From IMG/VR virus record IMGVR_UViG_2531839440_000003, positions 1 to 41,145 of that record: a stretch of 41,145 bases of DNA; one strand, 5' to 3'. The stretch's first letter is position 1. Every line of letters starts with the position of its first letter. Shown piece by piece: positions 3,859-6,890 of this stretch. The notes below the pieces were generated by a model. That model had not been told where the DNA came from. It saw nothing but the letters and a program-made list of their open reading frames with translations, and searched no databases. Position numbers and translations under genes: made by a program. This DNA is from a virus (Duplodnaviria > Heunggongvirae > Uroviricota > Caudoviricetes).

Positions 3859-4062
3859 TTACGGTGCTGTTTTAAGTCCTGCCGGGATTTCGTTATTATC
3901 CATGTGAATAACTTTATCGACCGGATAGCAGTTACCGGGAATTTTTTGTTCTGCTGCGGCAGCCATGCATTCTTTCATTGAACCGTAAATGTCAATAACC
4001 ATGTCAACAGGCTCGCCAGTATTAAGAAAAACAGTCAGAGTGAGGGCAATAGCAGTATTCAT
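3859..4062 (-). CDS. Small protein with hydrophobic N-terminus (positional equivalent of Qin ydfD)
   Basis: 67 aa from ATG at 4062 (AAGGA RBS 8 nt upstream); start overlaps upstream stop as ATGA; hydrophobic N-terminal segment MNTAIALTLTVFL. Confidence 0.45.
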   Translation of the reverse strand: MNTAIALTLTVFLNTGEPVDMVIDIYGSMKECMAAAAEQKIPGNCYPVDKVIHMDNNEIPAGLKTAP

Positions 4063-4247
4063 TGCCAGTATCCTTTTTGCATCGGGCGTAAACGTGCCAG
4101 CATTGAAAGAATGCATATTTTATTTAATAGCTCCCGTTCGTGTTTTCTCTTATTAATGGCATCTTCAGTAAATACAGGGTTACTGATTCTGACACCAATT
4201 TCAAAACAACCTTCAGACGTATTGACGTTTGGTAATAACGTTTCCAT
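4059..4247 (-). CDS. dicB: Cell-division inhibitor DicB-like protein (62 aa)
   Basis: Internal ATG of ORF 4059..4343 with GAGGA RBS 7 nt upstream; product METLLPNVNTSEGCFEIGV...NKICILSMLARL matches my recollection of E. coli DicB in sequence and exact length; lies downstream of the dicF-like hairpin as in Qin. Confidence 0.6.
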   Translation of the reverse strand: METLLPNVNTSEGCFEIGVRISNPVFTEDAINKRKHERELLNKICILSMLARLRPMQKGYWQ

Positions 4248-4430
4248 TATCGCGTCCTCAACAATGAATTTTGTGATGCGGTGCCTGGTGCCTCCAGGTG
4301 ACGTTAACCAGTTAATAATTAACGCCGGATACAGAGAACCCACCCATAAGAACCAATACGGAAGTCAACTGGCCTTTTTAACTGTTCCGCGTGCGCTGAG
4401 CCGCATTCACCGCATCACAAAATTCACTTT

Positions 4431-4490
4431 AAAAGGGGCGGGTATCATGGGAAAAACAAAACGGATACCCGCCAAAAGGTAATCAACATG
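4431..4490 (-). ncRNA. dicF: DicF-like sRNA 3' domain with intrinsic terminator (boundaries approximate)
   Basis: Minus-strand 10-bp perfect stem GGCGGGUAUC/GAUACCCGCC (4437..4446 with 4464..4473), 17-nt loop, followed by CCUUUU; preceded by UUUGGCGGG, resembling the DicF 3' hairpin as I recall it; 5' region differs from K-12 DicF. Directly upstream of dicB-like ORF. Confidence 0.4.
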
Positions 4491-4813
4491 GGTTGTTGCA
4501 GCGGGGTTGTCACTCAGGCGTATGGTCAACCTGACAACCCGGTGGACATTTGCGAGGAACGGAGAACCCCCGCCATACTTACCGCCGCGCCATTTCGCGG
4601 AGTGCCACAACCGGAAGCGCACGGTCGACGAAAATTTAACGACAGGCTATCTATGAACCAGCAACCTCGCCGTGCGCTTTCGCGTTATGCTCTGACTTTT
4701 CAGAGAAATATCCTTTCAGTAAACTGTCAGTGCCGGATGCTCACCCGTGTCCGGCGCACACACTCCACCTCACCTGTGGAGAACTCCTTAATTACCAACC
4801 CTCAGGAGGGTGA

Positions 4814-5047
4814 ATGTTAAAATCAACGCTTATTGCTAAATGCCTTTATCAAAATCGCATGGTAAGCAGCATTTCAATAAGCGAATCTGCAGTTAAAAGT
4901 ATTTTCGAAGAGTACTTTCCCGGGCATGATTTTAATAAATGGAATACCAAATTACCGCCAGCAGTTTCAACGCGTATTCTGAAAGCAACTGAAAGAGCAA
5001 GTACAATTCGCGTTAACTATTTCATTAAAGATTTGTGGGATCTTTGA
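4814..5047 (+). CDS. Hypothetical protein, low-GC, opposite orientation to the early-left operon
   Basis: 77-aa ORF with GGAGGG RBS 5-6 nt upstream; AT-rich codon usage unlike flanking phage genes; 3' end overlaps the convergent gene by 23 bp. Confidence 0.4.
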   Translation: MLKSTLIAKCLYQNRMVSSISISESAVKSIFEEYFPGHDFNKWNTKLPPAVSTRILKATERASTIRVNYFIKDLWDL

Positions 5048-5432
5048 TATCCACAGAGCCTAAAGTATGTGCATATGGATGTGCTATTGTGCGCCCCTGT
5101 AAATTTGCATCGTTTTCTAAATCTTTTGATTTCAACAGAACATCAGCAAGACTCTGAATCATGCAGAGATAATCAAAAACAGTTGCCGTTTCTGTTCTGA
5201 TTGCTGAAATAACATGACCATTCAGGCAAACAGAAATTACCCGTTCATCAATATCGTTTTCCTGTTTTTGATTATCAGAACCATATAGCCCTGAAAAAGC
5301 ATTGCGCACATTACGAACCATATTATCGATGGTTTCTTTTTTGGTGTGTGCCGGGTCAATTTTCACCAGACTATCACCGAGTGTCGTTGCAGCAATTATC
5401 TGGATTTCTTTTGGTAAATCTTTAAATTCCAT
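5025..5432 (-). CDS. Hypothetical protein, low-GC moron
   Basis: 135-aa ORF, no transmembrane segment evident, AT-rich; no Qin counterpart at this position between the ydfC-like gene and dicF-like RNA. Confidence 0.5.
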   Translation of the reverse strand: MEFKDLPKEIQIIAATTLGDSLVKIDPAHTKKETIDNMVRNVRNAFSGLYGSDNQKQENDIDERVISVCLNGHVISAIRTETATVFDYLCMIQSLADVLLKSKDLENDANLQGRTIAHPYAHTLGSVDIKDPTNL

Positions 5433-5454
5433 TATTAGCCTCGTTGGTTAACCA

Positions 5455-5673
5455 TTAACGTGGGTATGTAATCATTCTGGCAATGCTTAATGCCGCTGCT
5501 TTTTCCAGATTGGTGATATCCTGCTCCAGAGCGGACAGATTTTCAGCCTGCTTAGCCCTGGCTTCATTGGCCCATTTCAGATCCTGCGCAGCCTTAATTT
5601 TCTGGTGCATCCACTCATAAAGTTCATCATCGGTATAGTCTGGCGCGATGATGACGGGTTCTCGTTTCTGCAT
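5455..5673 (-). CDS. Small coiled-coil protein (72 aa; positional/length match to Qin YdfC)
   Basis: ATG at 5673 with GAGGA RBS; the longer track ORF 5455..5706 is an upstream in-frame extension. Confidence 0.5.
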   Translation of the reverse strand: MQKREPVIIAPDYTDDELYEWMHQKIKAAQDLKWANEARAKQAENLSALEQDITNLEKAAALSIARMITYPR

Positions 5674-5702: not shown

Positions 5703-5831
5703 TCAACCGTTAGATTTTGCCGAACTGGAAAGCGCCTGTTTAAATTCGCTGAAGCTGAGGGCTTCTTCGCCTTCGGCAAGGCCTTCGAAGTATTCTTCGT
5801 AAGCCTTTTCCATGATTGTGTCGAAATCCAT
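5703..5831 (-). CDS. Small acidic protein (42 aa; positional/length match to Qin YdfB)
   Basis: Below the 60-aa ORF-track cutoff; found by hand: MDFDTIMEKAYEEYFEGLAEGEEALSFSEFKQALSSSAKSNG; ATG lies 1 nt after the upstream stop. Confidence 0.45.
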   Translation of the reverse strand: MDFDTIMEKAYEEYFEGLAEGEEALSFSEFKQALSSSAKSNG

Positions 5832-5832
5832 A

Positions 5833-5988
5833 TCACTCACCTGAGTTTCTTTCCAGCCAGCGACGGGCACCATTTTCGGTTTTAAACGTTTTGCTTTTGG
5901 TATACGTCATCGCGGTGAACGTGCCGTCCTGGTTGGGAAACACGCCGTACACCAGAGATTCGTTGTTACCAAGATCGATAGTATCCAT
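5833..5988 (-). CDS. Small protein (51 aa; positional/length match to Qin YdfA)
   Basis: Internal ATG at 5988 with GAGG RBS 5 nt upstream; first gene of the leftward early operon. Confidence 0.45.
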   Translation of the reverse strand: MDTIDLGNNESLVYGVFPNQDGTFTAMTYTKSKTFKTENGARRWLERNSGE

Positions 5989-6177: not shown

Positions 6178-6585
6178 TTACTGATGTTTGTTACGTTTGC
6201 GAGCTTCTAGTAGCTCGGTGAATAGGCGATTAAAATTCTCAACGCGGGCACGGAGTTCGCTGATTTGTGCTTGCTGCTCTGATTTTGGAAGTGCGCGATA
6301 CAATCGCAACATCTCCAACTCATCTTCCGATAAGTCTAAGGCGCTGTTGAGTGCAACTGGTGGATCTGGTGTTTTATCCTCGTCACCAAACAGTATCCAA
6401 GTTGGTGAACATTGCAATACCTCAGCCAGGCGATGCAAATTTTGCCCACGCGGGGCTGTATGGTCGCTTTCCCATAGTGAAATTGATGAGCCAGATACGC
6501 CAGCGGCTTTGCTTAAATCGTTTTGACTTAAACCAACCTGTTTGCGTCTTTCTCTAATTCGTTGACCTAAAGTTTTCTCGTTCAT
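6178..6585 (-). CDS. dicA: DicA-like HTH (XRE-family) prophage repressor
   Basis: 135-aa ORF with N-terminal HTH (LSQNDLSKAAGVSGSSISLWE) and the segment LQCSPTWILFGDEDK, which I recall from E. coli DicA; divergent from the Cro-like gene. Confidence 0.75.
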   Translation of the reverse strand: MNEKTLGQRIRERRKQVGLSQNDLSKAAGVSGSSISLWESDHTAPRGQNLHRLAEVLQCSPTWILFGDEDKTPDPPVALNSALDLSEDELEMLRLYRALPKSEQQAQISELRARVENFNRLFTELLEARKRNKHQ

Positions 6586-6662
6586 ATTTAGATATCTTAA
6601 TAACCCTTGACTTGAGATTCCTTGAGTGATTACTATTGAGAAAACTCAATTTTGGAGGGGTG
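6586..6662. promoter_or_regulatory. Divergent immunity promoter/operator region
   Basis: TTGACT -35-like hexamer near 6607, repeated CTTGAG half-sites, operator palindrome ATTGAGAAAACTCAAT at 6635..6650, then GGAGGGG RBS of the Cro-like gene. Confidence 0.5.
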
Positions 6663-6890
6663 ATGTTTAAATCAGACGTAATTAATTTTTATGGGACGAA
6701 AGCCAAAGTAGCGAAAGCTGCTGGTGTTGATCCATCTGCTGTTTCTCAATGGGGGGAACTGGTTCCTGAAGGTCGCGCGATGCGCCTGCAAGAGGCATCC
6801 GACGGGGAACTTCAGTACGACCCCAAAGTTTATGACGAATATCGTAAGGCAAAGCGGGCGGGGCGGTTGAACAATGAAAATCACCCCTGA
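6663..6890 (+). CDS. dicC: DicC/Cro-like small regulator
   Basis: 75 aa from ATG at 6663; segment VPEGRAMRLQEASDGELQYDPKVY matches what I recall of DicC; divergent from repressor. Confidence 0.6.
   Translation: MFKSDVINFYGTKAKVAKAAGVDPSAVSQWGELVPEGRAMRLQEASDGELQYDPKVYDEYRKAKRAGRLNNENHP

Follow-up and report, generated by a model that had tools for sequence, protein, structure and literature searches.

Comparison of loci from several bacterial genera indicates that a small gene, A, and the C-terminal part of its convergent neighbor, B, constitute a conserved, mobile pair of genes in temperate lambdoid phages. The window, as the whole 41,145-nt stretch analyzed here is called, carries gene A at positions 4814..5047 of the plus strand (77 aa) and gene B at 5025..5432 of the minus strand (135 aa), each with an ATG start in the ORF table. 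The two genes share 23 bp at their 3' ends (5025..5047 on both strands, read from the sequence), and this overlap carries the inverted repeat AAAGAT-N7-ATCTTT. These coordinates agree exactly with those of the initial annotation, which had described a low-GC two-gene insertion in a dic-type early-left operon. What that annotation overlooked is that the pair recurs as a linked module across genera, and that the constant partner of A is the C-terminal 75 aa of B (hereafter B-core), not the whole 135-aa protein. While both protein families were already catalogued in PHROG, they have gone unstudied, and a literature search by accession and keyword found no study of the A or B proteins; it is their linkage as a cross-genus module that is new.

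The gene pair within a dic-type early-left operon

The surroundings of the pair are those of a dic-type early-left region. A DicA-like HTH repressor gene (6178-6585, minus strand; HTH_3, E=1e-16) diverges from a P22_Cro-like (Cro/DicC-like) gene (6636-6890, plus strand; P22_Cro, E=8e-18). Leftward from the repressor, the operon comprises minus-strand genes for the 51-aa YdfA/DUF1391 protein (5833-5988; Pfam DUF1391 match), the 42-aa YdfB (5703-5831) and the 72-aa YdfC (5455-5673), the latter two named from a RefSeq locus that is 98.5% identical. Beyond the pair follow genes for the 62-aa DicB (4059-4247; Pfam E=4e-37) and a DUF1482/YdfD-like protein (3859-4116; Pfam DUF1482 match), and the operon also includes an 823-aa ORF that is labeled 'exonuclease' in the 98.5%-identical RefSeq locus. 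The order ydfA, ydfB, ydfC, then dicB and the DUF1482 gene is the same in the window and in K-12 Qin. Pfam matches, RefSeq names and the K-12 comparison all agree with the Qin-like gene lengths and order that the initial annotation had assigned.

Pairwise alignment of the window with K-12 Qin reveals a clean indel of ~635 bp (~4802-5436) located between the ydfC stop codon and the GC-rich ydfC-dicF spacer. The extra sequence consists of B, A and the ribosome-binding site of A; in K-12 Qin the slot between ydfC and the DicF precursor is empty and both genes are absent. The insertion is also AT-rich, as previously described, with positions 4814-5432 having a GC content of 0.370 (37.0%) against a window mean of 0.504 (50.4%; sd 0.038). 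This is the lowest value among 619-nt stretches sampled every 50 nt across the 41 kb.

The spacer itself (4480..4800, minus strand, ~330 nt) lies in the flank, outside the module, and most of it aligns identically with K-12. [quoted passage not shown] The Qin dicBF operon (PMC10448788) shares with the window the genes on either side of the pair, the order in which they stand and the spacer processed by RNase III, and differs in that its slot is empty where the window holds A and B. Compared with shuffled sequence, positions 4480-4800 have a stronger predicted fold on the plus strand (z = -3.3) than on the minus strand (z = -1.3). A novel structured RNA of the module was considered for these GC-rich 330 nt upstream of A on account of the plus-strand value. 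This candidate was rejected because the stretch is the K-12 ydfC-dicF spacer and DicF precursor, and is not common to the modules of other genera. The known RNase III processing concerns the minus strand, whereas the mRNA leader of A would derive from the plus strand.

At the DicF position, a hairpin at ~4430-4485 (minus strand) aligns with K-12 dicF, in keeping with the earlier description of a DicF-like hairpin, but it is ~9 nt shorter through a deletion in its 5' part, has a different loop and gives no match to Rfam DicF at E<=1. As a divergent variant, the RNA encoded here may have other targets or none. Within the dicF-dicB intergenic sequence, positions 4270-4424 (minus strand) match Rfam STnc100 at 33.5 bits (E=8e-5), below the gathering score of 47, and this stretch is conserved in K-12. 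Related prophages have a second cargo site between the DicA-like repressor gene and ydfA (L095 2694-3172; L120 681-1152; L118 809-1476) that holds PaaA2-ParE or HigB-type toxin-antitoxin pairs; in the window this site is empty. Elsewhere, the window contains a cluster of three tRNA genes (Met-CAT, Arg-TCG and Arg-TCT; 16844-17093, plus strand), and tRNA clusters before the late genes are typical of Stx-type lambdoid prophages.

Both A and B are genuine genes and not chance ORFs, as evidenced by purifying selection, homologues in several genera, membership in PHROG families and a confidently predicted fold for A. The A protein belongs to phrog_10348 (E=4e-47) and B to phrog_1363 (E=1e-42), both without functional annotation. 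In the structure model A is all-helical and compact (pLDDT 95.7), and no enzymatic or membrane features were found in it. Homologues of A at 53-71% identity occur in Klebsiella, Raoultella, Dickeya, Xenorhabdus, Salmonella, Morganella, Yersinia and Serratia, with an N-terminus, MLKSTLIAKCL, that is invariant or nearly so. Values of pN/pS are below 1 in most comparisons of A and B. They span 0.09-0.54 for A and 0.18-0.50 for B-core in in-register comparisons, and are higher for B-core in cross-genus pairs with register shifts. It is hardly credible that either ORF, or both, arose as a non-coding artefact of inserted AT-rich sequence. Amino acids are conserved alongside synonymous change across genera, the fold of A is confident, and A is intact in the large majority of E. 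coli loci examined. The ribosome-binding sites are strong as well, with a Shine-Dalgarno sequence for A (AGGAGG at 4804-4809, plus strand; with its spacer, 4804..4813, read from the sequence) and a GAGG for B (5439-5442, minus strand) six bases upstream of the ATG. On the side of an artefact stand the merely hypothetical annotation of both genes and the frameshifting of A in some strains.

Among 5426 complete E. coli genomes, 650 (12%) carry A, at 664 places that are nearly always chromosomal; the carriers include O157:H7 EDL933 and many further O157:H7 strains. Only 12 of 50,697 deposited phage records (phage Evi and PPompW prophages) contain the gene, as does one plasmid record. A is frameshifted in a minority of strains (L001 6515-6761; L078; L079; L009). 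In strain 602354, the closest relative of the window, it is frameshifted and annotated as a pseudogene, and a 62-aa truncated form of A is found on 52 contigs.

Conservation of the pair and polymorphism of its slot

Viral, genome and metagenome contigs were scored with HMMs of A and B-core. A convergent B-core partner is present in 107 of the 108 loci that have a full-length A, many of which are near-identical E. coli copies, such that the set represents an estimated ~25-30 distinct lineages (no formal count). The pair is carried by E. coli, Serratia, Yersinia, Dickeya and low-GC Proteus, by several viral contigs and by one high-GC phage contig. Of the 107 pairs, 101 overlap by 23 nt, 5 by 26 nt and 1 by 38 nt, the last in the high-GC phage contig (L093), where the pair comes after a cro-like gene. 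In the Dickeya, Serratia and Yersinia loci fetched for their A homologues, a leftward gene of 77, 79 or 191 aa always converges on A and overlaps it by 23 or 26 nt, and its last ~75 aa are homologous to the C-terminal half of B. Here B is the first gene to the left of a CI-like repressor gene and, throughout the loci, the pair adjoins the immunity region with its repressor and cro genes. A and B-core stay paired, convergent and overlapping where the proteins have diverged to 42-70% identity, and over GC contents from ~37% to that of the high-GC contig. Taken with the constant B-core pairing, a block of sequence shared upstream of A suggests a mobile unit of ~560 bp comprising the promoter of A, A and B-core. 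The initial annotation had raised the possibility of conserved, non-defensive homologues in related prophages; homologues are indeed found at the same position, none of them with a known function.

The single exception among the 108 loci is a solo A homologue of 79 aa (42% identity) on a Psychrosphaera chromosome (L010 3989-4228, plus strand), which is without B-core. It sits between a chemoreceptor gene and a glycosidase gene, and no phage genes were recognizable among the ORFs examined in the 1-kb stretch around it.

Turning to B, an AF2 model (pLDDT 76) predicts a helical hairpin (residues 8-49), a linker (51-62) and a beta-hairpin with helices (65-124), suggesting two domains joined by a disordered linker. 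The N-terminal domain (aa 1-55, MEFKDLPKEIQ...; 5268..5432, minus strand) is what stays constant in the E. coli slot. Residues 1-55/64 match phrog_9419, 2151, 6937 and 33007, and the sequence of this domain is found at 2395 places in 1241 of the 5426 E. coli genomes. B-core (aa 56-135; 5025..5267, minus strand) is phrog_23433-like, and in every genus it is what converges on A. Its family forms 71 clusters at 50% identity among 1.8 billion proteins. In alignments A3, A4 and A5 the motif T..A..DY...LE.EAN..G(K/R)T..H is conserved, with the polar residues T, D, Y, E, N and T invariant or nearly so and H conserved. Distant B-only queries against viral contigs returned mostly nothing. Some B-core proteins (P0122, P0212; L080, upstream of 4215-4460) have an N-terminal ClpX-type C4 zinc finger (Pfam E=1e-9), and in other genera YdfC-like sequence is fused to or adjoins B-core (Yersinia L006; 'MQKKEP...' starts in Xenorhabdus).

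Two B-core alleles in E. coli (window 5025-5267 versus L014, L037 and L068) differ with pN 0.125 and pS 0.34. Beside these diverged alleles, A has a pS of 0.02-0.07 and is nearly invariant in E. coli. This abrupt shift where A meets B suggests recombination, with its breakpoint in the overlap or close by.

E. coli genomes differ in what they carry in the slot after ydfC. The first ~50-55 aa of B recur on proteins with unrelated C-termini, all at loci after ydfC, and in most of these sister cassettes each C-terminus comes with a different convergent small gene. Where the window has the 135-aa leftward gene and its 77-aa partner with a 23-bp overlap, other genomes have leftward genes of 201 aa (B-core plus a 75-aa extension; 63-aa partner, 23-nt overlap, eight genomes), 179 aa (80-aa partner, 20-nt overlap), 208 aa (69-aa partner, abutting), 133 aa (partner of ~64 aa, possibly frameshifted, 41-nt overlap) and 124 aa, the last with no convergent partner. 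In the 201-aa variant, B-core is present and A is replaced by another small gene. Sister cassettes occupy the same slot at L094 4001-4775, L121 2001-2763, L118 2001-2837, L120 2001-2556 and L119 2001-2375, and the three measured are also low in GC (0.40-0.42). Altogether there are five C-terminal variants and at least four unrelated convergent partners. The A cassette occupies roughly a quarter of the slots (664 places versus 2395 for the N-terminal domain). The small partners are unrelated to A by hhalign (probability <= 0.2%), and two of them compared with each other by BLASTP gave merely a weak 20-residue match. This arrangement, with a constant N-terminus, variable C-termini and distinct adjacent small genes, is the layout of a polymorphic effector/immunity locus.

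Both proteins were then as unfamiliar to database searches as they had been to the initial annotation. Neither A nor B matched Pfam or NCBIfam, nor any family in PADLOC-DB 2.0 at E<=1; profile searches against PDB sequences found nothing, and fold comparison gave no match and no DNA-binding fold in either. No HEPN domain was found by Pfam, PHROG or PADLOC. With regard to type II toxin-antitoxin systems, the genes are convergent and have no toxin or antitoxin fold and no Pfam or NCBIfam match. The suggestion that the slot holds exclusion or host-takeover genes stands insofar as it is a hypervariable cargo site, but A and B have no Pfam, PHROG-annotated or NCBIfam match to SieB, Kil or Ral, and no PADLOC match. 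Five sister cassettes searched against Pfam, NCBIfam, PADLOC and PHROG matched only PHROGs without functional annotation, apart from one chance-level PADLOC match. By these comparisons, the pair falls outside every known defence, toxin-antitoxin or exclusion family tested.

Expression signals and possible functions

Gene A lies on the opposite strand from the early-left operon and converges on it, and is thus not readable from the early-left promoter, as the initial annotation stated. All the non-E. coli loci compared have just one stretch upstream of A in common, a block of 75-90 nt. It contains the invariant motif GTGnTAnnCT ~35-40 nt before the ATG of A, which resembles an extended -10 element and would fit independent, lysogen-compatible expression. 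In the window this conserved promoter block is absent and a Qin-type spacer takes its place (aligned sequence GTGGAGAACT). A speculative, weak sigma-70-like candidate lies upstream of A (TTTTCA-17-TAAACT; 4697..4725, plus strand; 8/12 matches) and was not reported by a stricter promoter scan. The proposal that A is expressed in the lysogen therefore finds support in the conserved block of other genera, but is uncertain in the window, where that block is replaced and the weak candidate alone remains. In three E. coli cassettes the different convergent genes have upstream and Shine-Dalgarno sequence in common, so that in E. coli the expression signals are a property of the slot rather than of the cassette. 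In the Yersinia prophage L006, GC-rich sequence upstream of A (4497-4624, minus strand, 128 nt) matches an Rfam tRNA at 38.5 bits, above the gathering score, and was not called by ARAGORN; either a tRNA-like element or chance similarity could account for the match.

On the strand of A, a speculative terminator-like hairpin with a T-run was reported just past the B start codon (5478..5505, plus strand) by a scan that found 5 sites versus 2.8 expected by chance. An analogous site is found in L083 (4511-4540), which also has a promoter directly upstream of B with 11/12 consensus matches. If the terminator at 5478-5505 were used, the transcript of A could be antisense to the whole of B.

From the linkage, orientation and position of these genes and the polymorphism of their slot, we infer a timing of expression, an antagonism between A and B and an effector role for B that would together make A/B-core a state-dependent pair, with B an inducible early effector and A a separately transcribed small inhibitor. 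This is the reading we prefer, and we hold it tentatively. Since B lies within the pL operon, it would be transcribed from the repressor-controlled early-left promoter pL and made only early after infection or induction, when its target may be the host or a competing phage. With a convergent promoter of its own, A could be made in the repressed prophage, where the 77-aa helical protein may bind and neutralize B-core in the style of an immunity protein. It would then shield the lysogen against leaky expression of B and, as a form of exclusion, against B brought in by a superinfecting relative. Once the prophage is induced, strong pL transcription through A would silence it by collision and antisense pairing, and the phage would free its own B.

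B is favored as the effector and A as the inhibitor because the polymorphic protein is the one on the pL strand, A is immunity-sized and helical, and B-core has conserved polar residues. The variety of cassettes, the Tha/Ith precedent, the linkage in 107 of 108 loci, the repressor-side position and the upstream block of A's own count in the same direction. Counting against this assignment are the replaced promoter block in the window, the presence of B-core without A in the 201-aa variant and the solo A in Psychrosphaera. In addition, E. coli copies of A hardly vary, yet the B-core alleles there differ by ~13% at non-synonymous sites, which argues against tight co-evolution. Charge complementarity between a basic A and an acidic B was also considered and dropped; it is true in the window and inconsistent across families, which counts against tight-partner models.

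The polarity could also be reversed in a Tha/Ith-like manner, with A as an anti-phage protein expressed in the lysogen and B-core as the phage's early inhibitor of A that prevents self-targeting. While this is unlikely, it is nearly as good an explanation as B as effector and A as inhibitor. A is nearly never found without B-core (107/108), and B-core does occur without A; since a weapon needs its antidote and an antidote is useful alone, this asymmetry would be expected if A were the weapon. Being the first early gene, B occupies a position typical of counter-defence, and the solo A in a bacterial chromosome and, by analogy, the Tha/Ith precedent may be read the same way. However, A has 77 aa, no enzymatic or membrane features and no PADLOC match, and the protein that varies among the E. 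coli cassettes is the one on the pL strand, which more closely resembles an effector.

It is a little harder to credit that A and B have no functional coupling and are independent cargo, co-travelling only through their coding overlap and the small size of the unit. Such independence would suit the constancy of A next to diverging E. coli B-core alleles, the sharp change in divergence at the junction and the swapping of A for another cassette gene while B-core is kept, and no sequence-based signs of interaction were found. Yet the pairing persists across the full span of protein identity and a wide range of GC content with overlaps of 23, 26 or 38 nt. Because the length of the overlap varies while the pairing persists, the overlap itself is not what holds the pair together, and at least four unrelated cassettes repeat the same two-gene layout. 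A role as a lysis-lysogeny switch element, for which OOP RNA versus cII and the face-to-face promoters of phage 186 are comparators, is improbable. Here the A transcript, the A protein or both would restrain early-left expression through convergence and antisense, and B would be an early regulator. The constant adjacency of the pair to the repressor and cro genes and to pL is consistent with this role, and the terminator-like sites past the B start in the window and L083 could allow the RNA of A to cover all of B. However, those terminator calls are weak, neither protein has a DNA-binding fold, and most dic-type prophages, Qin included, do without the pair, which makes it accessory.

Relation to known systems and significance

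In the Staphylococcus aureus prophages 80alpha and phi11, the Tha/Ith system pairs a defence gene with a small overlapping antisense inhibitor gene (PMC11087260). Tha is a large HEPN RNase that is encoded in the cI operon and activated by tail proteins, and Ith is antisense with a constitutive promoter; their expression is mutually exclusive between lysogeny and lysis, and the small partner inhibits the other (PMC11087260). By analogy, A and B are overlapping genes on opposite strands that lie near a repressor and the lysogeny module (107 of 108 loci; 23-bp coding overlap in the window), and they may have a comparable split between lysogenic and lytic expression. In contrast, Tha/Ith has no sequence or fold relation to A/B. 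Moreover, the strongly regulated strand in A/B is the lytic pL strand, and both of its proteins are small (77 and ~75-135 aa).

In the pore-forming colicins A, E1, Ia and K, the 3' end of an inducible effector gene faces a small immunity gene that is transcribed on its own, and the effectors combine a conserved N-terminal part with polymorphic C-termini that each have a cognate small partner. The convergent layout of a putative effector and small gene, with a constant N-terminus and variable C-termini, is analogous in the E. coli slot. Colicins, however, are secreted plasmid toxins with membrane immunity proteins, whereas A is soluble and helical and B is without a colicin domain. Within lambdoid phages, RalR/RalA is a type I toxin-antitoxin system of the Rac prophage early-left region in which RalA is a non-coding sRNA. 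There a small early-left effector gene is countered by a convergent overlapping transcript, as may be the case in A/B, but the antisense transcript of A/B encodes a conserved protein under purifying selection. SieB/Esc of lambda and P22, in which SieB is a membrane protein of ~190 aa and Esc an in-frame product of the same gene, is, as A/B may be, an accessory early-left function with built-in self-immunity; it differs in having no homology to A/B and a layout that is not convergent.

On a broader scale, the slot after ydfC and the repressor-adjacent position in other lambdoid phages may represent an unrecognized class of polymorphic cassettes, each comprising an early-lytic effector domain and a cognate opposite-strand overlapping inhibitor. 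A dormant prophage would use the inhibitor to neutralize the effector of a superinfecting relative, and induction would disarm it by convergent transcription. Of this class, A/B-core would be the founder and the most widespread, contributing two folds not present among solved structures. We consider this generalization doubtful, although, if true, it would amount to a new protein-level form of superinfection immunity.

The pair is widespread in Enterobacterales prophages, with A in 12% of complete E. coli genomes, yet it has been without annotation. By virtue of its place inside the dicBF transcript, between ydfC and the RNase III site, the module may affect the output of DicF and DicB in pathogenic strains. 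If the effector/inhibitor switch is true, the logic of the 'antisense noncontiguous operon' would extend from staphylococcal to Gram-negative lambdoid phages, and the region beside the immunity genes would be a new hotspot of polymorphic cargo. The two small, easily cloned proteins could then serve as tools in research on prophage competition or host takeover.
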